Shown here one piece after another: positions 2,549 through 34,610 of a stretch of 64,000 nucleotides of DNA. The notes beneath the pieces were generated by a model, which worked only from the letters and a program-made list of their open reading frames with translations, made no database searches and was not told where the DNA came from. Each line of letters begins with the position of its first letter. Positions within the stretch are counted from its first letter, which is position 1. Source of the DNA: Schmidtea polychroa (Eukaryota); assembly GCA_044892525.1 (NCBI GenBank), contig CM097885.1:24740001-24804000 (forward strand), in the 5' to 3' direction. A program made the translations under genes and the position numbers.

Positions 2549-3259
2549 CATGATAGTAGGTAGTTAGGAGCTTACGGCAACAATATGGGGGGGGGGGGGG
2601 TAAAAAATGTTGCAAACTTTTGATTGCATAACTTTTTCCGTAGACATTTTTTGATTACATAATTGTTGCCGTAATGCCCAATGTTTTCTGGGATTTTAAA
2701 TACAAAAAATTTTTTTTTCAATAAACAAGCCAAGGATAAATATTATTTGGGTGGGTCTCCTTGGTCCTGAGAATTTCAATAGAAAAAGGTAGTCTTCAAT
2801 AAAAAAGCATGGATTATTCAGACTATAGTGAGGGGATCTTCTTGGTCATGGGAATTTCAATAGAAAAGGTGGTTTACATTAAAAACGCATAGTAAATTTT
2901 TAAAATAAAGTAAATTAAGGTCCTAAAAAATTAAATTAAAGTAATGAATGGGCACAAATAACTAAATTAAGGTTCTAAAAAATTAAATTAATTAAGTTAA
3001 TTAAGGTCCAAATTTTAAAATTAAGTAATCAATGGTAAAAAATTAAAGTTAAATAAGTAAATTAAAGTAATAATTTTTAAATTAAGTAATCAATGGTAAA
3101 AAATTTTAAATAAGTAAATTAAAGTAAATTAAAGTATGATTTTGAAATTTATTAACAAAATAATAGTAGGTGTTTGAGAATTGAAATTTTTTAATGAAAA
3201 TTTTTATGAAATAATGTAAAATTGTCATTGAAAAAATTTTCATTTCTCAGGCGCCGTTT

Positions 3260-3493
3260 AGTAGGTAGTTAGTGGCCCGCTGCAGCAATGACCCCCCTCC
3301 CCCGATTTTTTTGCTGCACGATTTTTTTTGCTGCAACTTTTGATTACGCAATTGTTGCAACTCGTTTTTTTTCCTAGGATTTTCAATACAAAAAAAAAAG
3401 TTGCAACAATTGCGCAATCAAATGTTGCAGCAAAAAAAAAGATGCAGCACAAAAAAAAGGCTTGCATTTGCAGCGGGATCCTAACTACCTACT
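3260..3493. mobile_element. Internal 234-bp mini-element with the same AGTAGGTAGTTAG termini
   Basis: AGTAGGTAGTTAGTGGCCCGCTGCA...TGCAGCGGGATCCTAACTACCTACT; its interior resembles the outer TIR; flanked by 46-bp inverted (not direct) repeats. Confidence 0.8.
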
Positions 3494-3539
3494 AAACGGC
3501 GCCTGAGAAATGAAAATTTTTTCAATGACAATTTTACAT

Positions 3540-4330
3540 GAAAATTATGGTCTGAAAAAAATTAAATTACAGTAAATTATGGTCCAAATTTTTCAATTAC
3601 AGTAAGTTATGGTCCAAATTTTTCAATTACAGTAAATTATGGTATATATTTTTAAACTTAAGTAAATTAAGGTCTAAAATTTCAATTAAGTAAATTAAGG
3701 TCTAAAATTTTCAATTAAATTAAATTAGGTCTAAAATTTTCAATTAAGCAAATTATGGTCTAAAATTTTCAAATAAGTAAATTAAGGTCTAAAATTTTCA
3801 AATAAGTAAATTATGGTCTAAAATTTTACATGAAAATTATGGTCTAAAATTTCAATTAAGTAAATTAAGGTCTAAAATTTTCAATTAAGTAAATTATGGT
3901 CTAAAATTTTCAATTAAGTAAATTATGGTCTAAAATTTAAAATTAAAGTAAATTATGGTATATATTTTTAAACTTAAGTAAATTAAGGTCTAAAATTTCA
4001 ATTAAGTAAATTAAGGTCTAAAATTTTCAATTAAATTAAATTAGGTCTAAAATTTTCAATTAAGCAAATTAAGGTCTAAAATTTTCAAATAAGTAAATTA
4101 TGGTCTAAAATTTTCAATTAAGTAAATTAAGGTCTAAAATTTTCAAATAAGTAAATTATGGTCTAAAATTTTACATGAAAATTATGGTCTAAAATTTTCA
4201 ATTAAGTAAATTATGGTCTAAAATTTTAAATTAAAGTAAATTAAGGGTCAAAATTTAAAATTAAAGTAAATTAAGGTTCTAAAAAATTAAATTAAAGTTA
4301 ATTAAGGTCCAAATTTTTTAAATTAAGTAA
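3540..4330 (+). repeat. ~29-30 bp tandem minisatellite inside the Polinton-like element
   Basis: Repeated unit AAGTAAATTA(T/A)GGTCTAAAATTTTCAATT; degenerate copies occur in both TIRs. Confidence 0.9.
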
Positions 4331-5659
4331 TCAATGGTCAAATATTTTAAATAAGTAAGTTAAATTAATAATTTTTAAATAAGTAATGTAATAAGCAAAT
4401 TAAAGTAAGATTTTAAATTTATTAACAAAATAATAGAAGGTGTTTGAGAATTGAAATTTTTTAATGAAAATTTTTATGAAATAATTTTTAAAGTAATTTT
4501 AGATGGAAATTTTTATGGAATAATTTTTAAGATAATTTTTAATGAAAAATTTTATGAAATATTTTTCAATGAAAATTTTAAATGAAAACTTTTATGAAAT
4601 ATTTTTCAATGACAATTTTAGAAAAAAAAAATTTTTTTTGAAATAATTTTAGATGGAAATTAAGTAAATTAAGGGATACATTTTTAAATTAAAGTAATCA
4701 ATGGTCTATATTTTAAACTTCTATATTCGGTAAACAAGGACTAAATTAAGTAAATAAAGGGTTAAATTAAAGAAAATTATGACTAAGTTAATTAGATTTA
4801 AAGAATAATTACCTTTTCATTTAACACTACAGTGTTAATTCTTACCATTTTAGAATAATATTTTTTATCAAAGTTCTTATCTTGATTTATTTAATTTTAA
4901 TGAATTAATTTGAAAGATTATTTAGATACATTTTGGTGTTTAAGGTATTCATTAGTAATTATTTTTTTAGAGTTGATGGTTTTTGTGAATTTTTATCATT
5001 TTCGTGAATTTCATGTGGATTGAATGAATATTAAAAAATTTTAAGTTAGTTCTAAGATAAATTTAATTAATTTCTTGATAATTGGATGCATTTTAATTGA
5101 TTAGTTTTTTAATTTTAAATAAAAATTATTTTTAATGACAGTCAGGTTAATAATCACGTGATAGGATATGACTTTGTAATAATATTTTTTTTTCATATAT
5201 TTTCTAAGAATTTCATGTTGACTGATTAAAAGTTTTAATGGTGATAAATTTAATTGATAAATTTAATTAATTTCTTGATAATTTGTTAAATTTTAAATAA
5301 AAATTAATTTTTTTTTAATGACTGTTAGGTTAATAATTAAGTAATTGGTTTAATTTTAGATGACTTTGTAATGCATTTGACTAAATAATTTTTTCAATAA
5401 TTTTCTAAGAATATTTACACATTGATGAACTTTTTTAAAAAAAAACATAACCTAAGAAACCAGTTAACCTTATCAAGAACTTTAAATTTACTTGATAATT
5501 TACAGAAATGATATACAAAATTTAATTTACAGAAATAATTTACAAAATAATATACAGAAATTTATGATTAAGTTTGCTTTTATGAACAATCAATATATAT
5601 CATCTCTAGTTAGGTATTTGATAGGTGAAATATTTGTAGTAAATAATAAGTTTATTATG

Positions 5660-5784
5660 TCTTTGTTACATAACTCGACTTTAGCGTCAAAATGTGTTTT
5701 TAAAATAAATTTTAATTTTAAAATACCGCAACGTAATATATTAATTTTTTCCTACCCTTCCTTGATTTTGATTGGTTAGAATTT
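5660..5784 (+). promoter_or_regulatory. Putative promoter/cis module shared by two Polinton-like elements
   Basis: Ends ~75 bp upstream of the pPolB ATG (5860) and contains GATTGGTT (reverse CCAAT); a closely similar block lies at 59212-59335 and a partial one at 59864-59932. Confidence 0.55.
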
Positions 5785-5859
5785 GTTCCTATAAACAATA
5801 ATAATCTATAAACAATAATCAATCATTAGTCACATTTAACAAATAATTAACCTTTAAAA

Positions 5860-8800
5860 ATGAATTCTTTAATAGAAAACGTTATGAATGTCCGAGAAAA
5901 AATTCAGGAATTTGGTAAATTTTAATTTATTTATTAATTAATTTAATAATTAATTTAGATAATATTAATGAAGACAATTTAAAATCGAAGATTAAAGGAA
6001 ATTTGAAAAGAAAAAGTAAACATAATTTATAATTTATTGATTTAATTAATTAATAATTTAGGTAATACGAATAAAGAGAAAAATTATGTCAATGTGTCAA
6101 TAAATCGAAATGAAAATTTACAATGTAAGTATTGATTACTTTTTATAATTTAAAGGAAATTTAATATAATTTTTTATTTAAGTAAATGTTAATATTTTTA
6201 ATTTAGTAAATTTTTATTCTTTAGTAAATAAAATTTGTAAAATAATAATAATTTGCAAATTTTTGCGTAAACAATTATTAAAATATTTCATTTAAATTAT
6301 ATTTTTTTTTATTAAATTTTTATTTTATAGGTATACTTTATCCAAATTATTGTTCATCGAAAGAACATGATAATAATTGCCATTCTATAATGGAGAATTA
6401 TTACACGAAAAAATATTATAATAAAACTTATTTTATATGTCCCGTATGTAAGACTAGTGACCCTGTAACATATAGAGTTTTTTATAATAAACATAAAAAT
6501 CACTTAGATAGGTTTAATTTTAAAAAAGATAGTGTTTTTAAAAGACCCTCGACTATAGAAAAAAATAATACAAATAAAAAAATTAAATTAGATACTTCTT
6601 CTTTTGAATCCCAGGTTGAATTAGATGTTGAATCCCAGGCTGGATTGTCTTTTGTTGAATCCCAGGACGGATTGCCTTTTGTTGAATCCCAGGACGGATT
6701 GCCTTTTGTTGAATCCCAGGTCGGATTGCCTTTTGTTGAATCCAATGATGGATTGGTTGTTGAATCCCAGGACGGATTGGTTGTCGAATCCCAGGTCGGA
6801 TTGTCTTTTGTTGAATCCCAGGTCGGATTGCCTTTTGTTGAATCCAATGTTGGATTGGTTGTTGAATCCCAGGTCGGATTGGATAATATTTCCCTTGACT
6901 CTTGGGACGGAAAAACTAATATACAAATAGGGGGTAATCTTCCCATAATACAAACAGATCTAAGGGGTACCCATCAAATATTAAGTTTAAATACTAGCGA
7001 CTTAAATATAAAGGAAATAATATTTCCAGAACAATTAATTATAAAATTACGAGATATTATTAAAGAATTAGGCTCCGTCAAAATTCAATTCGGAATAACA
7101 ATCGAATTTGAAAAAGACGGGGAAATAAAGGTTAATAATATCTCCAATTACGCAAAACCTTTAACTGCATCATTTTTTGATGAAGGTAACTAGGGAACTA
7201 AATGAGAAAATAACTAATACTACAGAGTTAGAAAGTAGTTGGATTATAAAAAATATAACAGAAATCCACTTCACTATAACAAAAATAAGTAGGTTAATTA
7301 GATTAAGTGGTAGGAGTTTCATTGAAACACCTACTTATCTAAAAAATAAATATTGTTTAATTAATATAAAAAACACCGATGATTCATGTTTTTTATATAG
7401 CATTTTAGCTATTTTAAAATATGATGAGGTTATTACACAATATAGAAATAGGACATCCAGTTATAATTTATCCGACTTAATATATAATCTGTTAGAATTA
7501 CCCATGAAATTAAAAGACATTAGGAAATTTGAATCTAAAAATCCTGGCTTAATAATTAACGTTTTTTCTTATGATAATAGCAAACAATTAACAGATAATT
7601 ACGTTTTAAAACATCCACATTTAGACATTATACATCGTTCCAAAGTTTTAAATGGAACTGTAATTAATTTACTACTATTAAATAAAGGAAAAAATTTCCA
7701 TTACGTTGCTATAAGTAATTTAAATAGGTTACTGAATTGTGGTATCAACACTACTTGTCCTACACGCATACAATCATTATGGTGCCATCGGTGTTTGAAT
7801 GGGTTTAGGTATAAACACGCACTGGAAAAACATGAAATATTATGTAAACGTAATCAATTAGGAACAACTCTTTACACTTTCCCTCAAAATAAATTATTGC
7901 AGTTTACTGACTGGTCGAAAACAGTAACTCCTCCTTTTGTAGTTTATGCGATTTTGAGGCTATTTTACCTTCTGATAATCTTCATTTCCAACGACACATG
8001 CCAATATCTGCTGGTCTTTTACTTGTAAATAACTTTGACGGATCTAAATCTTATCAACAGTTCATAGGTTTAGATTGCGTCGAGAGTTTTTTAAGTGCTA
8101 TAGAGGATATAGCAATAAATAAGGTTCTTACTTTTTATTATAAAATGGGTAGGAAACCTATGATTAAATTAACGAAAATTGAACAACGTCAATTTGTTAG
8201 TGCATCTGTTTGTTATCTTTGTTTGAAATCTATCGTCGATCCTGTTAGAGATCACGATCATTTTACGGGGAAATACTTGGGTGCAGCTTGTAGCACATGT
8301 AACATAAATAGGAAAATAAATAAAATTTTGCCTATCGTATTTCACAACTTGAAGGGATACGATATGCATCATATACTTAAATACGGATTAAATAAATTTA
8401 AAAATTGGACTTTAGGTTGCATCCCAATAACGACTGAAAAATTTATTTCTTTGATTGCTCATTTAGGCAAAATTAGCTTAAGATTCATTGATTCTTATCA
8501 ATTTGTCAATGATTCTTTAGCTAAAGCAGTCAAAACTTTGAATTCTTTGCCTTTTACTAATTCTGCTTTTTCTGGTACTATAGTTTCTGAAAAAGGAATC
8601 TTCCCTTATAATTTCGCCACATCTTTAGATATTCTCCAAACTACTTATGAATTACCACCAATCTGAGAGGGTGTCACTGAGCTTGAGTATGAAAAAGCTC
8701 AGGAGATTTGGGTAGAAACTAATTGCCTAACTTTATTAGATTATATGATGATCTACCTAAAACTTGATTGTTTTCTTTTGGCTGATTTCTTTCATCAGTT

Positions 8801-10388
8801 TCGGTTGAAATCTATTGCTCACAATAGATTGGAACCATTGAATTATTTCGGAATTCCAGGTATGTCTTGGTCTTCTGCATTAATGTCTTTAAATGAACCA
8901 ATTGAGCTCATAACTGAAAACGAAATGTTTAGCTTTTATGAGGGTGGAATAAGAGGCGGTCTTACTTTTGTGAATAAGCATTACGTAAAAACCGATGAGA
9001 ACACCGAGTTACTATATATAGATATTAATAATCTTTATGGTTGGGTTTTAAGTCAATCATTACCTTGTGGCGAATTTAGTTTGGTTCTTGATGGATTTGA
9101 TTTAATAATGGATGAATGTAGGAATTTAAATCTTGAATCTTTGTCTTATGGATACACTCTTGAAGTTGATCTTGTAATTCCTTCTGAGCTTCATGATAAG
9201 TTGGATGATTTCCCTGTAGCTGCTGAAAAAATGAAACCTGCTGGGTCTAAGGTTGAAAAATTATTATTAACTCATCTTCCAAAATCTAATTATGTGATTC
9301 ATTGGAGATTATTAAAATTATATTTGGAACTTGGTGTTAAAGTAACACGTGTAAATAGGGGTGTAAGATTTAAGCAATCTCCAATTTTTAAAAAATATAT
9401 AGATACAAATACAGAATTAAGGTCAAAAAGCATAAATAGCTTAGATAAAAATTATTATAAATTGCTAAATAACAGTTTATACGGTAAAACAGTTGAAAAT
9501 TTAAAGAGAAGAATGAATCTTCGTCTTTGTACAACTGCCAATAAATTAGTTAAATATTCTTCAAAGCCGACTTTTAAAAAATCTATTAAAATAGACGATA
9601 ATTTAATCGCGGCATTATTGAATTCAGATTCTATATGTTTAGATAGACCGAGTTACATTGGTCAATCTGTACTTGATCTATCTAAACTTAGAATGTATGA
9701 ATTGCAATATAAGGATCTGGAATCATTTCGCAATGAGTTTAATTGTAAAATTAATATCGTTGCAGGTGATACAGATTCCTTTTTCCTCGAAGTCATTAAC
9801 TGTAAACTTGAGGTTCTTTTACCTGCAATGATTCGAGATAATTTATTAGATACTTCCAATTACAATAGTTGTCATTTCTTATATGGTAAGAACCTAGATT
9901 CTGTCATTGGAAAGTTCAAAGACGAGAATAAAGGTCTTAAATATAAGGAATGGGTTTTTCTTAGACCTAAATGTTATAGCTTGTTGGGTGATGAGGAAAC
10001 AAAAAAGGCTAAAGGTGTAACATTGAAAGGTAGTGACATAAAACATAAGTCATACCTGGATTGTTATAACACTAACCAGATTTTTTCGGTTCCTCAGACT
10101 AAAATAACAAGCAAAAATCATCAAATTTTTACAATTAAAAACACAAAAATAGCACTAACTAACAAAGATGACAAAAGGGTTTGGGTGGGGAAAATTACTA
10201 GTCTTGCATATGGGCATGTAAGATTAAGTGAATTAAATATTGGAGAAAATGTTGGAGAAATTGTTGGAGAAGATTTTGATGAAAATGTTGGAGAAGATGA
10301 GGAAGAATTTAATGAAGAAGATTTTGGAGATTATGTTGGAGAAGATGATATCGATATCGATGACGTTATTTTGTCTGATGAGGACTAA
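5860..10388 (+). pseudogene. Protein-primed DNA polymerase B (Polinton-type), spliced gene with 2 frameshifts and 1 premature stop
   Basis: Exons 5860-5914, 5959-6015, 6062-6124, 6331-10388 are joined by GT-AG phase-1 introns in frame with ORF 6390. Motifs: ExoI VYA(D)FE (1-nt deletion ~7950), endonuclease-VII-like DHDHFTGKYLGAACSTCN, FHNLKGYD, YIDINNLY, KLLNNSLYGK, GDTDS, FLRPKCY. Frameshift ~7190; in-frame TGA 8664-8666; AATAAA ~10397. Confidence 0.93.
6603..6880 (+). repeat. Coding 27/30-bp tandem repeat (VESQDGLPF-like) in the pPolB N-terminal region
   Basis: About 10 units of GTTGAATCCCAGG(A/T)CGGATTG(CCTTTT); this explains the overlapping shadow ORFs in other frames. Confidence 0.9.
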
Positions 10389-20447: not shown

Positions 20448-20542
20448 TGAACAAATTAAATTCAAATGAAGTCCGAATCAAAGTTTTATCTATCAACTAT
20501 CATTTGCTAGACTCCAAGTGTATAAGTCAACAAAGCATGCTC

Positions 20543-21225
20543 TCAAGTTTTATCATTTTTTGAAATACCAGCTTCAAGTTCTCCAATAATCATCAGACCC
20601 TTTTCTTTTCGATATAGGGGTTTGCATTCACCGGATGCTTAGCAAGCACTGTATTGTAACATTTGATTGCCGATGGTCCCCGGTTTAATTTCAAATTACA
20701 ATGCGCCATATTCAAATATAATTTCACAATATGACTCCATCGAATTTTCTCCTCGTCATCAGTCTCTAACGGCATAGCATGTAATATATCCAATCCTTGT
20801 AAATATTCATTGAGCGCAATTCCAAAACGTTTGTTTCGAACAGCAGCAATGGGATCATTTTGACATTGAACAACTAATTTAATAATTTCATTGAAAGAAA
20901 ATTGGAATTATTCATCAATAAAATTTTCAAACAATTCATCAATAATGTCTGTCAATTTACTAGTCAAAGCTTTGTACTTGACAAATGAAGTAGAATCAGA
21001 TTACTCAACATCATCAACGTCATTATCAAAAGGTAGTGACAAACTACATTCTTTTAGTAGTGATTGATATCCTTCTCCACTAAAAAAACTATCTGTTTCT
21101 TCAGAACCATTAGAACTATACAGCTTGCTCTCTCCTTGTTCCATTAACTCAGTGATGTACTTTCTTTTCAGCATTCGATCTCTTTCATTTTCATTACCAA
21201 ATTTCAAATAAACATCCGTTGACAT
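20543..21225 (-). pseudogene. Intronless FKBP6/Shutdown-like TPR gene apparently lacking the PPIase domain
   Basis: Read-through translation ...FVKYKALTSKLTDI-IDELFENFIDE*FQFSFNEIIKLV...RNKRFGIALNEYLQGLDIL...KLYLNMAHCNLKLNRGPSAIKCYNTVLAKHPVNA(fs)LYRKEKGLMIIGELE resembles the linker and TPR repeats of FKBP6; 2 stops and 1 frameshift. Confidence 0.65.
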
Positions 21226-21318
21226 TTTTTGATTCAAATATTCAAAATAATACATGACCAATAATAATTCCTAAAATTTCGATAAATTCCATTCTTTTCG
21301 AGAATAAAAGCCTTTTTC

Positions 21319-21518
<200 letters not shown>

Positions 21519-21989: not shown

Positions 21990-24327
21990 CAGGCCCAGCC
22001 CAAGACTGACTTATATGGAAACGAAGAAAGGTGTAATCAATGACATATTTATCCAAGAGATGAAAATAATCGAAGCTTTTCCAATTCGCTTTTTTATCGT
22101 CAAATAAGTAATGGTGAAAAATTCCTAAGAAAATGGTTGCACTATTAAGAATCCAAAAATTCTGTATTTTGTTTTTCTTGCAAATTTTATGATCCATCAG
22201 GTAGGTCAAATCTAGCCAAATCTGGTTTATGGGATTGGAAAAATATTCACGACAGCTTGAAAATGCACGAACGGTCAGTTTCACATTTAAAATGTGAAAA
22301 AAACTGGATAGAAACTCGATTAAGATTAAAAGGCAATAAAACTATTGATAAGAATTTGCAGTCTTTGATAGTCCAAGAAAAATATAATTGGAAAAAGGTA
22401 CTAGAAAGATTAATCAACATAACATTATTTTTGTCAAAAAATAATTTAGCATTTCGGGGTTCTTGTGATAAGTTATTTGTTCCGCATAATGGAAATTCTT
22501 TCGGCCTTGTTGAACTTCTAGGAAAATTTGATTTACCATTAAATGAGCATTTGCGCAGGGTGGTCTCACAAGAAATTCATGTTCATTATTGTGGAAAAAC
22601 TATACAAAACGAATTAATAAGTACACTTGGTGATATGACAAGATGTCATATTTTGGATTCTGTTTGTAAACCGAAATATTTTTCGATTATTTTAGACTGC
22701 ACACCTGACATAAGCCATATCGAACAGCTCTCCATAACGTTAAGATTTTATGATGTTGAGGATATGGAAATAAAAGAGCATTTTGTATCCTTTAAACCAG
22801 TTTTTGATTCTACTGGAAAAGGATTATATGATGATATTTCTGAAAGTTTAGAAGAATTCAATTTGGAATTAGCAAACTGTAGAGGCCAAGGATATGATAA
22901 CGGCGCTAATATGAAAGATAAAATTAAAGGAGTGCAAGCTAGAATTTTAAAAGAAAATCCAAGAGCGTTTTTTATGCCTTGCGGTTGTCACTCAATTAAC
23001 CTACTAATTGGTGATAGTGTTTCTTCTTCAATAATGTGCATAAATTTTTTCGGATATGTTCAAAGAATTTATACTTTGTTTGCTGCATCTGTTGGACGAT
23101 GGAATATATTGAAAAAACATATTAAATCATTAAATCCTAAACCTTTAAGTGAAACGAGGTGGGAATGTAGAATCGAATGCATTAAAGCAATAATGTTTGA
23201 AATCACGGAAATTAGAAACGCATTAAATGAGTTGCAAGACACAATATTAGATGCTGCAGTTGTTTCAGAAGCTAGCTCTTTATCTGAAAAATAGAAGATT
23301 TCGAGTTTTTGTTAACATTATCTGTCTGGTACGTACTTTTGTCAAAATTTAATATTGTCAGCAAATCCATGCAAAAAGCTACATTTGATATGAGTAACGC
23401 CATCGAGCTTCTTTGGAATTGTAAGATTTTTCTAGAAAATTATAGAGACTCCGGTTTTTCTGATGCTTTAAAATCGGCCAAAGATCTCGCTGCGCTATTA
23501 AACGTGAACGCACAATTTAAAGCTGTAAGAATCAGAAGGCGACAAAAACAATTTAGTTATGAGTGTGACGATGAAACTCCAGATGTAAATGACCCAGAAA
23601 AAATATTATAAAAATCATGTTTTTAATGTTATGCTGGATCAATCGTTGATATCTATATCAGAAAGGTTTCAGCAAATGAAAGATTTCGAAGATTCGTGGG
23701 GTTTTTTGTTCAATATTCACAATAATAAAAATCGTTGTGATTTGCTGTAGAGTTGCAAAGATTTACATCTGAAATTAACAAATGAGGCCAGTAGTGATAT
23801 AAATGGAATAGAATTGTGCGAGGAAATCGAATCATTGAAGCAATTGGTACCAGATGATGTTAAAGATCCTTTAATATGTTTACAATTTATCAATGATAAT
23901 AATTTGAAAAGTACAGTACCAAATCTGTGGGTGGCTTTACGAATCCTCGTAACAATTCCTGTTAGTGTTGCGAGTGGTGAAAGAAGTTTTAGTAAATTAA
24001 AACTAATAAAAACGTATTTGCGATCTACTATGACGGAAGATAGGTTGAATAATTTGGCCATTATTTCAATTGAAAATAATGTTGTAGCAAACCTAAATTT
24101 GGAGGCAGCAATAGAAAAATTTGCAGACATGAAAGCCAGGAAAAAATCATTCTTATAAATTCTGTTTTTTTATATATATGTCAATCGAAAAAAATGAAAT
24201 AAAGTAATAAATGGATTGTTTTTTGTTAAACTTTTTTATTTTATCATAATTTTTGTACCTAATTTTTAAAATAGGGCGCTTTTTATAATTTTTGCCTGGG
24301 GCGTATAATTATCTCGAACCGGCGCTG
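21990..24327 (+). mobile_element. hAT transposon (Tip100/ZMYM1-like transposase pseudogene at 22257-24158)
   Basis: 8-bp TSD GTCTCCTG (21982-21989, 24328-24335); imperfect TIRs CAGGCCCAG/CAGCGCCGG; motifs LAFRG, ILDCTPDISH, GQGYDNGANM, CGCH, SETRW, SVASGERSFSKLKLIK. Confidence 0.95.
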
Positions 24328-25403: not shown

Positions 25404-25626
<223 letters not shown>

Positions 25627-25649
25627 ATAAAATGAAATAAAATAATTCA

Positions 25650-27470
25650 TTGCGTAAAAGAAAACTAGAAAGTCTACAAAAAATTACAATACCTGTCTTT
25701 GAAGGCAAAATGAAAGAGTACGAACCATGGAAAGCAGCTTTTACTGCGTGTGTTGAGGAAGCGGAAGGTGATGAGGTTGAAAAGATGTTTCACCTGCACA
25801 AGTATCTTCACGGAGAGCCATTAAAGTTAATTGAAAATCTAGGATATTCGGCAAAGGCCTATCAAATGGCTACAGAGAAGTTGGATAGGCGATATGTTGG
25901 GGATGAAAGGATATATTTATCAATGTTAGAGGAGATGGACAAGTTCACGCCAATTCGAGAAGGAGATTTGAAGGATTTAGACTTATCTGTTGGATTATTA
26001 GAAACAGTCACCGTTCAATTTAAATCCACTGGGAAAGAATCTGAGTTAAAGACTGGATGTCTTTTTCAAAAGTGTTTGGGCAAGTTAACTACAAATCTTG
26101 TTTATAAATGGAAGAAGGACAAAATAGAAAAGTAATTGCGGGAGACGATAGAGGATTTGAGAAGATGGATACAACAAGAAGCGGAGATCCTAAGATCTAC
26201 TAACGAGGTCGTGTATGGGATTCAACCAAATCCAGGACTTATGATGGGCCAAGAGTAGAAGATGTGTCTAGAGGAAGAGAAAGCTTCAATCCAGGAGGTC
26301 GGACGCATTTTACGAGGCAACCAGATGGCAGAGTTAAAAGTGGAACGTTCATACAGGCGAATTACTCTAACTTTTATAGATTAGAGTGTGTACAATGTGG
26401 TGGTCAACATTACCTAGACCAATGTGACAAGTTCAAGCAACTCACAATTTCAAAAAGGAAGAAAGTCATCGAAGAAAAGAAACTGTGCAGGAATTGCTTC
26501 AAAAGAAATCACATGGCCAAGGAATGTCGTAAAGAATCTTTCTGCAAGGTTACCGGATGTAAACAAAAACATAACGAATTATTACATGAAAGACAACTCA
26601 GTGAGGAGAGTGAAAAAGGTAACAACACGATGTTGACCCAGAAAGGGATGAACGAGAAAAACGTAAGACCTTACCTTAGTTTAAGAACAATTCCAATCTA
26701 CCTGGAAAATGGGGACAAGAAAATAAAAGTCAATGCACTGTTAGATGATGCAAGCTCAGTAAGCTACATCAATCTAAGAATTTTAAAAGAGTTTCGTTTG
26801 AAAGGGGTTGAAAATATGACACCGATAGGGGTTATCGGCGGTAATGTCCAACAAATGATAGCTTCTCCAGTGACCATGGAGTTAATTAGTAACGACTGCC
26901 GATTGACTAAGAACTTCAATTCGCTGGTCGTAAAAATTATCACGGGAGAAATGAGGGTAATGAATTGGGCGAGAGAAAAACATAAGTGGACTCATCTTAA
27001 GGGCATCCATTTTTCGATGCTAGACGAAAGACAGACAGTTGAAGTTTTAATTGGGGCAGATTATTTAACGCTTCAACGAGCACTCAAAGAAATCGATTGT
27101 AAGTTGGATGAACCGATTGCCCATTTAACTCCACTTGGCTGTACATGTGTTGGAAGAACCTCATTGGGAAGAACTTGGAATCATCAAAGCAATTTTATAA
27201 GAACGTTATTTGGTAATTGCGATGATTTGGAAAGACAAATGGAACGATTTTGGGAGATTGAAGAAAGTGGCTTAAAGGAAAATATATTTGCAGCAAAAGA
27301 CCAGGTGATTTATGAGAAAACAAAATCTGAGATGAAAAATATAGACGGACATTTCGAGGTAAAAGTGCCATGGAAAGAGTCACCAAAATCTTTGCCCAAT
27401 AGTGATAAAATGACAGAAAGTCGGCTGCGAAGTTTAACTAAAGGCTTGAAAAGGAAGATTTACGAACTGA
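25650..27470 (+). pseudogene. BEL/Pao gag-protease (RT/RH/IN absent)
   Basis: ORFs 25650-26135 and 26264-27487 with CVQCGGQHYLDQC, CRNCFKRNHMAKEC and CKVTGCKQKHNELLH; similarity stops just before RT. Confidence 0.88.
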
Positions 27471-27483
27471 GTATCAGGATAAA

Positions 27484-27990
27484 TTGAATGAGCATTCAAT
27501 CTCTAATATTGACAACCACAATAAAATCTTAATTGAAATGATCGAAGAATTGAGAAAGAAAATGAATGAGCTAAAGATATATGATATGAGAAAAGATGAA
27601 TCAATTGAATCATTAAGAAATGAAATCAATGCGATAAAGCCAGAAAATCAAGAGCTGAAAACCATGATGAGAAATAGCAATAATAATTTGTGGATCAAAT
27701 TGGATCAGATGGATATCGAGATAAATGCCAGGTGCAGAAATGATACGGTCAAATCGATAAATGAGCAAATTGAATCTATCAATCAATTAGAATTAGAACA
27801 GCAAATGAAAATTGTCGACAGAAAATGCCAAGAATTGAATGGAAATGTGCACATCATTCACCAGGTGAAGGCTGACAGTGATAGGATGGCGAAGAGAATG
27901 CAGGAAATGAAGGAGGAAAGAGATAAACTGACACGGGAAATAGAGCGAATCAATGAATTTTCGAAAATGCGGCATAATGGGGGGGGGTAA
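27484..27990 (+). CDS. Coiled-coil ORF in place of BEL RT-RH-IN
   Basis: 168-aa heptad-rich E/K/N/M ORF between the pre-RT segment and the pol C-terminal remnant. Confidence 0.5.
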   Translation: MNEHSISNIDNHNKILIEMIEELRKKMNELKIYDMRKDESIESLRNEINAIKPENQELKTMMRNSNNNLWIKLDQMDIEINARCRNDTVKSINEQIESINQLELEQQMKIVDRKCQELNGNVHIIHQVKADSDRMAKRMQEMKEERDKLTREIERINEFSKMRHNGGG

Positions 27991-28921
27991 TCGAAGCAGT
28001 TCCTGGAGAAGAAAGAAAACTATGTGTGACGATAATTAGATGTAAAGGAAAGAAGATATTGAGATGTATCTTCAAATTAATGTTTAATTATAAGAGAAGA
28101 AGATAATGGTAATTTGAGATTGACACCAATGTGTCAAGGGGGAGGATGGTGAATTATCAGTTTATGTCTCGCGTCTGTGTGCGTTTATTTGTTTTTGACA
28201 TTTTGGATTGAGTTGTATGCGCACACAGACGCGATCAGTGTAATTTGGAGATTGTTTTTTATCGAATTTTGGAGATTTGAGTTTTCAATTTTTATTTTTG
28301 GATTTTATATCAGTTGTTTAAATTTGGTAGGTTTTGTGATTGTTTTGAAAATACAAAGGTTTTAAAAATTCGTTAATTCCAAAATGGAAATTTCAAAATG
28401 GAAAAGGATATTATGATTGTATGGAGTAGAGAAGATGGCAAACAGAGTGATGTAATATATGGACATTCAGAATCAATAACGAAATTTATCAACGAAACTA
28501 ACTCATTCCTTGAAGTGTGGATTTATGTGATTATGTAATCGTATGGAATTTAAATCTTGATCAAATGAAGTTGAATAAATTCAAATCACTTGAAGGTTCA
28601 GAAATGATTGACTTTAAGTGGATAGTTGATCCATTATCCAAATATGAATTTCTATATATTCGAACAATAAAACTGGAACAGACGCATGGAAATTTGGACA
28701 CGAATCTCTATAAATTGGTCTTTATGCTTGCCGCTATCCCCGAACATGAGTCAAAGGCTTTTAGCTGATGCTTCGAAAGAAGATGATGCTCAATACAAGA
28801 GCGAGTTTATCAGAGCCAACATGTTCCGTTCGACATTTAAACAATCATTCTCATTTTCCTTCTCTTCCGTAAAAGATTGATTTGCTTTTCTTTCCATCAG
28901 TGCCCCAATCATTTGATGTTT

Positions 28922-29665
28922 TTACTCGATCTCTTGCAGGTCTTTATCTAAGATTGCAGTGATGTCCAATCTTTGCAATTTTTTACTAATCGTTCTTAGA
29001 TCCCCTAATTCTTCATCTAGACTCTCCTTTTGATCTTCAAATTCATCCAACCATTCACTGACTTCCTTCCTATTTATATCATTGAGAATCTTGTTTCTCA
29101 ATCTCGTTAATTTTCCTTTTTTCATTCTCTTTTTCCACAGTCCTTTTTCTAAAATCTCTTCGTCATTGCCACCGCACAGCCTGAGTGAAAAATGAATTGT
29201 CGAACCTACTTGTATGCTATAGTCGTTCAATATTCGTTTTTTTTCTAATTGCTTTCCAGCATAGACTAACGTTTGATAATTTTCCGGAATTCCTTCTTTG
29301 TTTTGAATTTTTTCTTTTACATTTTCAATCGTGTCATTCAATTCAATGTCAAGAGTAATTGTCTTATCAGTAAGAGTTTTGATAAATATTAGCTTCCTAC
29401 TTCTCAATCGAAACTCTCCTTCTTCCTCTATTCGACAACAAGAAGCCTCAAAACCCATTACCCCGCTCGCCCTCAACCTTGACTTAGCTCGCAAAAACGC
29501 CGAGCTTTTTATTTTATTTTTATTTAAACGGTTCCCCTGGCTACCCACTTTAAAAGAGTGCTGGGGCCCATAGCAGCACTTTTTCACTCTCGATGGAGAA
29601 GGGAGGATTGTTAATTTTACATATATAACTTCAAAATAAAATGAAAATAGTTTAAAGGAAACCAT
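28922..29665 (-). CDS. Ubiquitin-domain fusion protein (Ub ~29168-29392 plus charged C-terminal extension)
   Basis: [35 protein letters not shown]...LVYAGKQLE...[21 protein letters not shown]; the true start is uncertain. Confidence 0.85.
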
Positions 29666-29730
29666 TATTCACCATTGATCAGCCAGGGCTGTCTCCAATG
29701 CTCCATTGGTGCGTAGCCCCCTGAAGGTAA

Positions 29731-30303
29731 CTACACTCTGCTACCATGTTTAATTAACCACTTTTTTAATCACTGAACATGGTATCTATGCTGACAGGGC
29801 AACTCGTACACTTCATCGGCCACCTCATAATCTGACAGACAAATGGAACCTGTATCATTATCTTCGGTGATTTTCTTGACTTGTAATTTCTCAATATCTG
29901 CCTCATTTGCTGGTGGAGAACCACTCTTTTCAAATTGATTCATAATTCTCGTTGCAAAATTGTCGAAACTTTGATCTGAAAATATATAATCTGATCTAAA
30001 ATCTAGAGGTAGCAATCCACCAAATAAATTTGATATTAGTTGGCCAAAAACACTATTTCTGTTATCAGGATCTCTTGGAGTAATAAAAAAGGAACCATCA
30101 GTTTCGTTTGTAGTACTTCCACCAGGAATATGACGAATAATATGAAAAAAATTCAAAGCATCATCATCACTTTCCATTGAGTTATCAGATTCAATTCTTT
30201 CAATAAATCCATCATTGCACGTCACACATTTACCATCCTGAGATATGTCAACGTCTCTGTTGCATTTATGATAATAGTAATTATCTGTATTAATCGTAGC
30301 CAT
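29731..30303 (-). pseudogene. Intronless RNF115/RNF126-like RING-H2 E3 ligase copy
   Basis: N-terminal YYYHKC...CVTCNDGFIERI zinc ribbon, SPPA motif, ICLSDYEVADEVYELPCQHRYHVQ*LKKWLIKHGS; TGA at an expected Cys, and the first RING Cys and final CxxC are lost. Confidence 0.85.
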
Positions 30304-30523
30304 TAAATAAATTTACAAAAATTTATTTTCAAAACTTCCAGAAACTCCCAATCTTTTAAACAAACTTGACAAATTCAAACTTCATAACAAATCCAAAATT
30401 CCAATCGAAATCCGAATAAATCTTTAAAATTACACTGATCGCGTCTGTGTGCGCATACAAAAAACCAATGTCAAACGCAAAAAAAACGCACACAGACGCG
30501 ACACATAAACTGATAATTCACCA

Positions 30524-30583
<60 letters not shown>

Positions 30584-31399
30584 TGTAAATTAAGTTAGAT
30601 TATTTTCAAATGTTGGTTGCCCCCATTTCACCCCGATTTTTCTGCAAGACATTTATCATTTGTATCCCGTAATTCCAAATGTAGATTTAAATCAACCAAA
30701 TTCCAATGAGGTAATTCCTACAATGAAATATAAACCGGTGCTCATCAAAAACTAAATAAAAAATATTAGTTGGCATAATAGAACATCAACAATTCCTAGC
30801 AAAAGTTCAAATAAGGACAGCTGAAAATCTCAATTAATGAACGTTATTAACGAAGAGAGAACAGATTTCATATGGGCAAATGCATAAATTTTTATTTCGT
30901 TCTCCATAAATAGTGAGACCTGTATGCGTATGGAGTTTTATTTGGTTTCCTTCTCAAGCAATGTGTAACAAATATTCTGCCGATTGTATTAATAACTGTA
31001 CATATTTTAGGCATTTTACAAATAACACTTCACTAAAACAATAAATGATAATTCAATGAGAAGGATATTAAAATGAAAAGGATATATTTTCAAATTTGCC
31101 CAAATGAATGAAAAATATACAGTAAAATTTCCCGAGAAAGATAATCCGCTTTTCGCAACTTTTTTGTCACTATACTAAAAATATAATAAAATTCTCATAC
31201 GAAAATTTCATTATATAAAATCCATTTTTGTTTATATCTAATCAAATAAGATCATTTTTTGAAAATTATTTTTATGTGTATTAATTGTAAAAAGGCATTA
31301 AAGCATTAAAAAAGGATTCTAAATTAGCCAATATGTATGGACAATTTTTTCATAGACATATCTGATCAATAATTTAATTATTCTAGACCAGTTTTTCAG

Positions 31400-31833
31400 T
31401 TTTTCAGTTTTTCATTTCGGGGATTTTTCCCGAGGCCCTGCACTTTCATATAGAGCATTGAGAATTATACAAACAACTCCTGTTTCAGTAGCTTCAGCCG
31501 AACGCAGTTTTTCCAAATTAAAGTTAATTAAAAATTATCTAAGATCAACCATGCAACAAGATAGATTAGAGGGGGTGGCTTTGATCTCAATAGAGCAGGT
31601 AACAAACAGATAAATTTTGATGATATTATCGAGGAATTAGCAGTAAAAGGTTTTTACGAAATAAGAATAAAAAAATATTATGTTTATGTATGTATATTAT
31701 TGAATATATTGAAGAAATAAATATTTCATTAAATAAATTGATAAAATTATGTTCATGTTTCATTACTTCCTTTTTGGGAAGGAGCCCACATATAAAATTT
31801 CCCCGAGGCCACGTGAAACCCATTGCCAGCCCT
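31400..31833 (+). mobile_element. hAT 3' fragment
   Basis: LRIIQTTPVSVASAERSFSKLKLIKNYLRSTMQQDRL (dimerisation domain); ends GCCAGCCCTG. Confidence 0.75.
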
Positions 31834-32062
31834 GGTTACTCTACAGATTTATTCGTTTCTCTCAAATTTTAACAATTATCATTATATAAATAAAACAAAT
31901 AATTTATTTGCTTTAATTTTATAAATAAATTTTGAATTCCTATGTTCACTCCATAGCTAAAGAATTATTTTCATATGATATTATAAGAACTTTTTTCGAT
32001 TTTCACCATTAATTTCTTTTCAATTGACATTGTATTTATTAAAAAAATGGACTATGAATCAC

Positions 32063-34610
32063 TGATTTTCTAGCTCCCGATTTCCCGGGAAATCCACCAA
32101 AATATCTATTCCCGATTTCCCGAGAAAAAAATTAAATTCCCGGGATTATTTTAAACATTTATCAACAAATAATTGAAAATAAATATTTCAAAACTACTTC
32201 TTGTTTTATTTAAAAATATTTGAAACCAAAGTAACAATTGACTTTTTTGTTTTCGAGATTATGCAGGTGCACTATAACTATATAATATTTTTTTAAAATC
32301 AAAGTGTGTGTGTCTACTGTTTAACAAGCATAAATTTAAAGTTTAAATAATTTTCTTTGTTTATTTGTGAATTAAAGTAAGTTTTATTAAATTTCAATAA
32401 CAATTTTTTTACTGATATACAATTTTAAATAATAAAGGGTTATTAAGGAGAAAGAATGTCAACAGAAAGGACTTGGATATTTTATTTTACCATTGATTCT
32501 ACTAATAAGGACAAAGCAAAATGCAATAAATGTAATCAAATGATTGTGAGAAAAGGAGGTTCAACAAGTGGAATGATCCGTCATTTGAATATCCAACATG
32601 GAATAGATTTGGTTACTAAGAATGATAAATTCGACGCGCCAAGTACATCATCGCCTGGCACATCTGATAAATCTATTTCAGGAAATCAAAATTCCATTTT
32701 AAAATATATAAAGAAAAAAACATTAGAAGAAATCCTTGCAAAACTAGCAGCTCTAGATGGAATTTCCATCAATGTTATTTCGAAAAGTACATTTATTCGT
32801 GAATCTATTTCTGCGAAAGGATATTTTCTTCCTAAAAATCCTTCACACATAATGAATCTTATATTTAACTATTATGCCGAAATCAAATCCGAACTTTAAT
32901 GTAAATTTTCAACTATTTTAAAAGCAAATCAAAAATTTTGCTTAACTTTAGATGAATGGACAAGCAGCCGTAATCGTAGATACATGAATATCAATGATGG
33001 AATATTCGAAAATTTGGGATTAATAAGAATTGAAGGAAGTTTTGGAGCTGAAAAAACGTTAGATATAGTTAATGAGAGGTTAAAGGAATTTCATTTAAAT
33101 TTATCTACAGATATTATTGCAATCATAACTGATGGAGCAGCCGTTATGGTTAAATTTGGGAAGTTAGCTCCTGCTTTCCATTTACAATGCTACACACATG
33201 GAATTGATCTGGCTGTTTTGGATACTCTTTTTGGTTCTGCTAAGACAAAATTATTATTGGTAAAAAATCAGAAGCAACAAGTAGACCAATTATTAGATGA
33301 TGATAGCGACATTGAAGGTATAGAAAGTGATGATGATAGTCTTGATAAAGAGGAAAATTCAGAATTTGAGGGATGTCATATGAACATGATACAAATATAT
33401 GTGACCTTAAATTCAATGAACTAAAACCAAAAATCCAGGATGTAATAAAACAGATCCGCAAGATATCATCATTTTTTGAAAAATCGCCAGTGCGCAACAC
33501 AATTCTTCAGCAAAATGTTAAATTAGAATATGGTAAAGAATTAAGCTTATTATTAGACTGCACGACAAGGTGGAATAGCTTGTTAGATATGTTGGAAAGA
33601 TTTGAGCAAATTAGAATTCCGATTAAAAGAAATCTATGTGAAATTAATGCTACATATCTACTTGATAACGAAGATCAGCTCTTCCATATAGTAAAAGCAT
33701 TAATTGCTTGTTTACTTCCAGTAAAATTAGCCTCCGAAGCATTATGTCGACGTGATATGGATTTAATAAAAAGTGAGGGGATTCTGTCGTTTGTAATAGA
33801 GACGTTAAATGCGTTAGATAATTCAATATCTCGAGAATTACTACAAAATTTTAAATTGCGGATGATAACTTGAAGACCAAAAATTTTAATTTCACCCAAA
33901 TAATCCAGATTTATTGTATTCTAAACAAGATGATAATTTTTTTGAAATGTCGTCGAAATCTGAAATGATTAAATTATCTAAAGAATTGTTACACCGCCTA
34001 TTTCCAGTTTATATCATTGAGGACACCGTTGAGCTTGAAAATGAAAATAGTGTATTAATTTCCGATACGGAAATTAATATAGAATCAGAGATGCCAGCAA
34101 ATGTTTTGAAACGAAAGCTTGAAAGTGCTATAAATATATGAGCACCAAAAAACAAAATACCGGAGATAAAGAATATAAGACTTTATTAACCGAATTTAAT
34201 TTATTTAAAGCCAGTGGAAAATTAACAAAAAATTTGAAGATGCTCTTAGATGCTCTTCTTTGCATTAAACCAACCTCAGTGGAAAGTGAAAGAGTATTTT
34301 CGACTGCTGGCCTTTTTGTCAATAAACTTAGGACAAGACTCAACGATAAATCAGTTAATGCACTAGTTTGTCTTAGAACTCATTTTAAGAACTGTGCTGA
34401 TAAATAACTTTTTGTTGTAATTAAGTTTTTTTATAGTAATTAAGTTTTCAGTTGTAATGAAAAAAAATGAATATATTAAATGTTTTTTTTAAATTCAATT
34501 TTTTTTAATTAGTAGATAGTATAACCCGGGTTTCCCGGTTTTCCCAGGAACATCTTCCAAATATTCTCGTTTCCCGGGATTCATTATTTGGCGGGAAATG
34601 AGAAAACCTA
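32063..34610 (+). mobile_element. hAT transposon with BED-finger transposase pseudogene (32456-34407)
   Basis: W.YF...KAKCNKC...GSTSGMIRHL..QH (BED), LDEWTS, TDGAAVM, CYTH, TRWNS, PTSVESERVFS; subterminal TTCCCGGG repeats; right end ...GAAAACCTA; degenerate 8-bp TSD TGAATCAC/TGAACCAG. Confidence 0.9.

Follow-up and report, generated by a model that had tools for sequence, protein, structure and literature searches.

Host mRNA retrocopies in the LTRs of a BEL/Pao retrotransposon of Schmidtea polychroa, in frame with ubiquitin-Gag-Pol

In the available portion of their survey (PMC3118150), BEL/Pao retrotransposons (Belpaoviridae) have a single gag-pol frame with DUF1759, a protease, a reverse transcriptase (RT), the Pao peptidase/RNase H, an integrase and DUF5641, and are bounded by long terminal repeats (LTRs) of the form TG...CA with 5-bp target duplications, all of which are shared by the element described here. 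The element differs from the layout given in that portion in that its frame starts 100-300 codons inside the LTR, in host-derived sequence, and in that a ubiquitin domain precedes Gag. The word ubiquitin occurs 0 times in the main text of the survey, and a search for five motifs in 9 of its supplements yielded rows of species only. In LTR-mediated retroposition, as set out in the accessible part of Tan et al. 2016 (PMC5131818), host captures replace part of the internal ORFs and give rise to non-autonomous elements; one case by a Pao element is included, and captures by maize Bs1 and yeast Ty are cited.

The window analyzed here is a stretch of 64,000 nucleotides of Schmidtea polychroa (contig CM097885.1, positions 24,740,001 to 24,804,000), in which a sequence-only reading had described positions 28147-30523 as one BEL/Pao LTR with long terminal inverted repeats, acting as a cargo cassette for ubiquitin-system genes. 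The assignment to BEL/Pao was borne out. A family search with a piece of the integrase region returned 162 candidates, 20 of which were fetched; LTR pairs 97.8-99.7% alike were found in 17 of these 20 integrase-bearing loci (one partial), and exact 5-bp target duplications were present in 11 of the 14 full elements tested. In the intact copy L116, a single frame runs in the order gag, protease, RT, RNase H/Pao peptidase and integrase, with ubiquitin in front and Pfam matches to DUF1759, DUF1758/Asp protease, RVT_1, Peptidase_A17 (E 1e-43), Integrase_H2C2 and DUF5641. All 20 of 20 protein database matches contain a Pao peptidase domain. The primer site is the 18-nt complement of the 3' end of a genomic tRNA-Met, which we take from its features to be of the initiator type, and the primer-site pattern has 298 exact matches in the genome compared to 0 for the control; the tRNA-Met 3' pattern has 1228 exact matches genome-wide. 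At L242 (G000:C1:79.33-79.39 Mb), tRNA-Met genes corresponding to the element's primer tRNA are arrayed in tandem every 454 bp. We also looked for the pattern expected of a Pack-TIR transposon, a unit never found as paired direct repeats around BEL gag/pol, and found instead that the LTRs occur both as such pairs and as solo LTRs with 5-bp duplications.

The 121-bp left end of the unit has 709 candidate places in the genome, 40 of which were scored. It begins sharply at the same TG in 30 loci, with the same polypurine tract ahead in 5 of the 30, and those copies, traced inward, extend for ~700 bp and close with the sequence whose last position in the window is 28843 (LTR-A). Full-length copies of LTR-A elsewhere (605-807 bp) are flanked by exact 5-bp target duplications in 10 of 14 cases, and LTR-A also serves as the 5' LTR ahead of the primer site in L070. 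Of 30 loci with the second type (LTR-B), 8 stand ahead of a primer site, 9 are solo LTRs bounded by an exact 5-bp duplication, and 13 were assigned to neither class; at L057, LTR-B stands at both ends (95% alike) with a 5-bp duplication. The 2377 bp are not one LTR, as had been proposed: the left LTR closes at 28843 and the right 777 bp are a second LTR followed by a primer-binding site, so that the unit is two different LTRs of ~700-800 bp from one BEL/Pao copy, set tail to tail by an internal inversion. LTR-A and LTR-B of the window copy are unlike and have only ~200 bp in common.

The shared ~100-bp LTR head (28147-28246, plus strand, with an internal 15-bp inverted repeat at 28169-28183/28220-28234) folds as a hairpin (z -3.2). 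Its core pairs are nearly invariant across 135 heads with no covariation (G-T 32 vs A-C 30), and the flanking positions lean toward G-T; the head is likely a promoter or a 5' RNA hairpin. The same hairpin motif with another terminus was observed on the minus strand at window 20490-21402, enclosing a TPR-like frame (TPR_1, E 7e-4) between (AAT)n tracts; this unit, a relative of which occurs in L042, is probably the LTR of a sister family. In L044 (G000:C1:111578950-111588949), at ~2.0-2.8 kb along the oriented stretch, a Rab1-like frame lies behind a hairpin head, and in front of that head stands a short inverted repeat together with a polypurine-like tract; the unit may be a miniature derivative. 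Adjoining a solo LTR-A in L031 is an ORF cluster (3000-9950) that we take to resemble a Polinton-like element. The window also contains decayed DNA-transposase-like frames at 22149-24158 (DUF4371) and 31356-33424, both presumably hAT-like.

The window copy lies between two (ATT)n tracts of one orientation (25406-25625 on the left and 30524-30583 on the right), which fits, weakly as this is repeat sequence, one insertion into one microsatellite. On the plus strand, gag (DUF1759 and three zinc-knuckle-like motifs), protease and the first residues toward RT occupy 25626-27487 at 92% to L116 and are interrupted by a stop at 26133-26135. The copy contains no RT to integrase; a coiled-coil-like frame (27442-27990, plus strand) replaces RT, RNase H and integrase, as in a non-autonomous subfamily, and none was found in the 20 of 20 integrase-bearing loci. 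The remnant of BEL pol noticed from the sequence alone is present, as ~200 bp before the polypurine tract are 74% identical to the region at the 3' end of pol in an intact copy. This tract (28138-28146, plus strand) recurs ahead of the LTR head in many copies, and directly after it the unit begins with TG and closes with CA, as had been described, with inverted arms at 28147-28190/30480-30523 (95%) and 28213-28246/30427-30460 (100%). Overall, the inverted ends extend over ~100 bp at 89% identity, and their 14-mer core occurs 6 times in the 64-kb window vs 0.00 expected.

Within the unit, LTR-A is the 3' LTR of the copy (28147-28843, plus strand, 697 bp, TG...CA). The decayed plus-strand frame reported there was recovered from 28398 as ORF-A (28398-28843), the leader frame of LTR-A, which is frameshifted in the window copy and has 0 Pfam matches; a longer variant gives weak WD40-like matches. 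At the inversion junction (28843/28844), the terminal CA of LTR-A abuts the opposite strand of the ubiquitin-gag piece. The minus strand then holds the N-terminal helical part of Gag (28844-29167), which directly follows the di-glycine of a ubiquitin-like domain ending LRLCGG (29168-29392; PF00240, E 4e-22). Ahead of ubiquitin on that strand are an AT-rich linker (29393-29728), open in frame in intact copies and broken here, and the tRNA-Met primer-binding site (29729-29746), matched at 16/18 positions in the window copy and at 18/18 in the 298 exact-pattern copies. LTR-B, the 5' LTR (29747-30523, minus strand, 777 bp), contains the intronless RNF115/126-like frame that had been recognized (ATG 30303; Pfam zf-RING_11 and Zn_ribbon_19). 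This frame (29747-30303, minus strand) was retrocopied from a host RNF115/126-like mRNA, of which it comprises codons 1-188 and 2 nt from the last exon; it has a stop at 29770-29772 and has lost its zinc ligands. The ubiquitin frame, which does lie inside 28147-30523, had been regarded as captured cargo antisense to the element; it is sense to its own LTR, forms the N-terminus of Gag, and is a fixed part of the element polyprotein. The window therefore contains one non-autonomous BEL/Pao copy in which the segment 25626-28843 is inverted.

We assign a probability of about 0.62 to the reading that this is an internally inverted, non-autonomous copy of a family with LTR bodies that were retrocopied from host mRNAs and share one frame with ubiquitin-Gag-Pol, and with a leader that is likely disposable and removed at the di-glycine by host deubiquitinases. 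This reading draws on observed LTR boundaries, intron loss, frame keeping, the pattern of selection and the uniqueness of the inversion.

The LTR body in this family is a retrocopy of spliced host mRNA. The RNF115 piece has 1077 candidates in the genome, 40 of which were scored, and through database protein P0001, which contains the RING end absent from the LTR, the host RNF115-like gene was identified; it has 7 exons and 6 GT-AG introns, and 6 of 6 introns are absent from LTR-B. The terminal AAACA of LTR-B spans the last exon junction of the host mRNA, which continues with TGGTA, the first 5 nt of the primer site; at this 3' junction, a AAACATGGTA-like sequence is common to the host mRNA and to the LTR end plus primer site. 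In addition, coatomer-like cargo corresponds to 7 host blocks at 95-100% with the introns gone, and chaperonin cargo lies within a 450-codon host frame at 98%. The proposal that the LTRs carry captured host gene sequence is upheld. Primer-site loci were examined in 90 cases from the first 100 listed of the 298, all on contig C1 and with the exact pattern, a sample biased to younger copies. The 62 of these 90 loci with leaders of at least 100 codons fall into 35 clusters; 13 of 22 leader representatives match EAP30, Proteasome, DSPc, Cpn60_TCP1, Ras, Adaptin_N, Cofilin_ADF or LIM (4 of the 13 matching two unrelated families, as mosaics), and 9 match nothing. Gene names for the cargo (RNF115, PSMA6, SNF8, COPG, CCT3, Rab1) are our assignments by sequence likeness. 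The cargo consists most often of proteasome alpha and ESCRT-II pieces, and the supposed ubiquitin-system theme is not supported, as chaperonin, coatomer, Rab, phosphatase, LIM and cofilin pieces are also carried. None of 9 loci compared was the host gene of the proteasome cargo. In G000, 150 matches to the N-terminal signature of proteasome alpha were scored, many of them probably further LTR cargo. Cargo sits between the LTR start and the primer site, and also in solo LTRs, with no replacement of internal ORF sequence. The genome is thereby seeded with many intronless look-alikes of housekeeping genes, which confuses annotation, RNAi design and read mapping.

Two readings that give the capture itself a benefit fit these data to a limited degree. 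We offer only tentatively the view that the LTR is a standing gene-capture slot in a BEL/Pao clade, in which a cleavable ubiquitin uncouples Gag-Pol from the leader, the repeated region is rebuilt time and again from mRNAs of essential host genes, and this turnover is favored as a disguise against piRNAs. If true, viral cap-snatching would have a heritable counterpart here, and hundreds of solo LTRs would keep supplying chimeric retrogenes that come with a promoter. A benefit at the RNA level is somewhat more doubtful. Here an LTR composed of essential host mRNA would provide piRNA camouflage or borrowed export or translation signals, with capture favored and ubiquitin cleavage enabling it, as the origin of the cargo in housekeeping genes, the many different leaders among copies with very young LTR pairs and the 95-100% identity of recent captures to host exons would suggest. 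However, frequent co-packaging is expected of any abundant mRNA, which would account for the cargo list without selection, and an RNA-level benefit is in any case compatible with the main reading rather than exclusive of it.

The ratio pN/pS was compared between variants shared between copies and single-copy variants. Values for ubiquitin were 0.36 shared vs 1.31 single-copy (p 0.0015) and for gag 0.31 vs 0.60 (p 0.043). The corresponding values were 0.69 vs 0.66 for the proteasome leader, 1.5 vs 1.4 for the ESCRT leader, 1.0 vs 0.7 for the RNF115 leader and 0.84 vs 0.83 for ORF-A; the phosphatase leader had too few variants. Purifying selection thus acts on ubiquitin and Gag and not on the leaders, of which the frame is kept and not the function. 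In the RNF115-like leader, the last CxxC lies outside the LTR, so that the last two zinc ligands are missing, and among 36 copies Cys11 is kept in 2, Cys155 in 7 and His178 in 13. Neither the eight RING ligands nor the N-terminal zinc finger of an RNF115/126 RING-H2 E3 is intact in the leader. In the opposite direction, the differences from the host gene that are common to most LTR-B copies are 11 silent and 7 replacement, as would fit either a degree of past constraint on the peptide or change on the host side. With zinc ligands lost and amino-acid selection absent among copies, a working E3 that modulates host defense, as first suggested, is not supported.

The same comparison bears on the idea that captured pieces are chosen for a protein effect, with broken E3, proteasome, ESCRT-II or Rab fragments serving as dominant negatives or decoys that aid particle assembly or blunt host control. 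We consider this unlikely. It would account for the prevalence of proteasome alpha and ESCRT-II cargo and for the TRAF-type RING and zinc fingers carried by a relative from a metagenome, and of the 6 replacements on the element side of the RNF115 leader, 3 fall at zinc ligands (binomial P 0.003), from which it follows that the RNF115 peptide was seen by selection. Zinc-ligand loss equally fits the detoxifying of a passenger, however, the fragments are partial, mosaic and of fast turnover, and no amino-acid constraint among copies was found in the four leaders with enough variants.

The reading frame connects the leader to the polyprotein. In 62 of the 90 copies, at least 100 stop-free codons of leader lie in the primer-site frame, compared to 1 and 0 in the other frames, and ubiquitin is in the primer-site frame in 56 of 80; as the copies are related, these counts are not independent events. 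Only 37 of the 90 are open both in the leader and on to ubiquitin, as expected with decay. The linker varies in length and sequence across copies, with shared lengths being multiples of 3 in 10 of 14 cases, and four linkers contain 0 in-frame stops vs 6-14 in the other frames (shuffle P 0.001-0.004). Among young copies (18 loci, 2 of which had no ubiquitin anchor), the polyprotein frame runs from inside the 5' LTR across the primer site into ubiquitin in 10 of 16 and is broken between LTR and ubiquitin in 6 of 16; three young copies, their LTR pairs at least 99% alike, each have one frame of 2121-2238 codons that begins within the LTR. The main lineage ends ubiquitin in LRLCGG and the second domain of a sister lineage ends in LGLAGG, neither being the canonical LRLRGG, so that cutting by ordinary deubiquitinases is not assured. 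This sister lineage with diverged Gag keeps the di-glycine just before Gag. The lineage (L128-L131, L133, L134, L148, L150) was observed to have the same primer site, followed by a near-canonical ubiquitin, a diverged ubiquitin and the diverged Gag, a pair that looks like a fresh capture from a polyubiquitin mRNA.

An in-frame Met stands directly before ubiquitin in the main lineage and a splice-donor-like AAG/GT at the start of the linker, after the primer site, which would also allow a different start or a spliced message. Together with the donor-like sequence after the head, these features would fit a cargo that is an untranslated passenger, with Gag-Pol made from that Met or from a spliced message and the openness of the leader left over from recent coding capture. 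This account is very improbable. Leftover openness would not align independent captures in one frame (62 vs 1 vs 0), AT-rich linkers of many lengths are kept open, the same read-through occurs in distant elements, and in the two-ubiquitin lineage the first ubiquitin is not preceded by a Met in the copies inspected.

The inverted ends that suggested a designed unit are two LTR heads, a by-product of an inversion seen once. The junction 28843/28844 is spanned by the window alone among the 40 best of 471 candidates, all others stopping or starting there. In five natural copies (L056, L060, L061, L064, L068), the ubiquitin-gag piece that ends at window 28844 runs straight into gag from window 25626, whereas in the window the two pieces point opposite ways, and the break at the end of the minus-strand piece continues in register at 25626, where the gag piece begins. 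Long terminal inverted repeats with convergent promoters are therefore not supported as the design of the element. As the break falls exactly at the terminal CA of the LTR, an integrase accident is the likely source, and an assembly error at the junction may be an alternative; L047 resembles the window copy, yet its break is not at an LTR end. That the 2377 bp are a real mobile cassette with terminal inverted repeats, whether Pack-TIR or an LTR with convergent promoters, is scarcely credible despite ~100 bp of inverted ends at 89% and inward-facing ORFs inside 28147-30523, given the junction's restriction to the window among those 40 best candidates, the free-standing LTR that each half forms elsewhere and the register kept at 25626. 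A Pack-TIR or other non-autonomous DNA transposon was likewise rejected, the junction being unique to the window among those 40 candidates and the left end closing at ~700 bp with no inverted partner. Two different LTR types at the ends of one copy were observed in the window (28147-28843 vs 29747-30523) and also in L061; intermolecular plus-strand transfer or later recombination could be the source of such unlike pairs. L061 and L108, which both have unlike LTR pairs, are cut by other insertions, and the flanks in the window are microsatellite.

For the main reading, retrocopied leaders in frame with a cleavable ubiquitin, a series of steps can be proposed from the arrangement of the signals. 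Transcription would start in or just after the ~100-bp head and polyadenylation would occur near the LTR end, so that the cargo would be part of a long R region at the 5' end of the transcript. With tRNA-Met as primer, reverse transcriptase would copy this R region first and could switch to co-packaged mRNAs at short matches, and a captured piece would then be copied into both LTRs. Ribosomes starting at a captured AUG would reach Gag-Pol only if the frame is open, which would put selection on the frame and not on the protein, and cleavage after ubiquitin would give the same Gag N-terminus whatever the leader, making repeated capture tolerable. In 64 of 90 copies an AATAAA starts 28-50 nt upstream of the LTR end, vs 0-9 in five control windows, a position that points to a long R region; LTR-A and LTR-B have no AATAAA at this 28-50 nt position. 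Four contig sets, three of them only presumed to derive from RNA, cover gag-pol and portions of the LTR, with no linker joint among those listed and little coverage of the linker bin in two runs of one sample; we draw no conclusion from these sets.

Outside this genome, ubiquitin and Pao domains occur together in 2 of the 20 protein matches, both of them metagenome elements (41% and similar overall identity), and a further search gave the same 2 loci only. In both, the frame continues through one and the same translated primer-site motif, not present in the other 18 matches, and ubiquitin ends in di-glycine before Gag. In one of them (L246), a leader of 528 codons with TRAF-type zinc fingers is contained in the 1.8-kb stretch from tract to primer site; LTR limits in these elements were set from tract and primer site alone, as neither contig holds a second LTR. 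Because two distant elements share it, the layout of leader, ubiquitin and Gag appears to be old rather than a local accident. No description of this layout was found in the literature outside Repbase reports and subscription journals, nor in the available portions of PMC11410931 and PMC8672886.

The ubiquitin domain appears to make capture cost-free for the element. If translation and cleavage hold, this would be a new retrotransposon expression strategy, a natural record of the mRNAs that enter particles, and a direct test of transposons hiding from small-RNA defense in host sequence.

Known systems share single parts of this arrangement. The primer site of Ty1 lies inside GAG, and ubiquitin inserts in cytopathic pestiviruses act as a cleavage signal. 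Ty1, in the accessible part of its description (PMC5454406), has a 5' UTR of nt 1-53 and resembles the present element in its tRNAi-Met primer and in an early Gag start with a frame that passes through the primer site; it differs in that this stretch comprises few conserved codons, with no host-derived or variable leader and no ubiquitin. Cytopathic pestiviruses, in the portions available (PMC13517609; see also PMC8310069), likewise carry host ubiquitin in the viral polyprotein, single or doubled and often in mosaic inserts; those inserts characterize sporadic, dead-end variants of an RNA virus (PMC13517609), whereas here ubiquitin is fixed and selected across a retrotransposon clade. With LTR-mediated retroposition, as far as it is set out in PMC5131818, the family has in common partial, intronless and sometimes multi-gene captures, which here too may have been joined by template switching at short matches. 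The captures described here, in contrast, form the LTR body in elements with a complete pol, stay in frame and turn over repeatedly. Gene capture known from LTR elements is internal and disables the element, whereas here active-looking elements carry the capture in the LTR, at both ends and in every solo LTR. Finally, the planarian giant Gypsy element Burro, in the part of its description consulted (PMC6431247), also has a polyprotein with host-like ubiquitin-system domains (RING, TRAF/MATH, SUMO-like). Burro is a Gypsy element of >30 kb with these domains internal and after Gag, whereas the present element is a BEL/Pao of ~7.5 kb with variable cargo in the LTR, before Gag.
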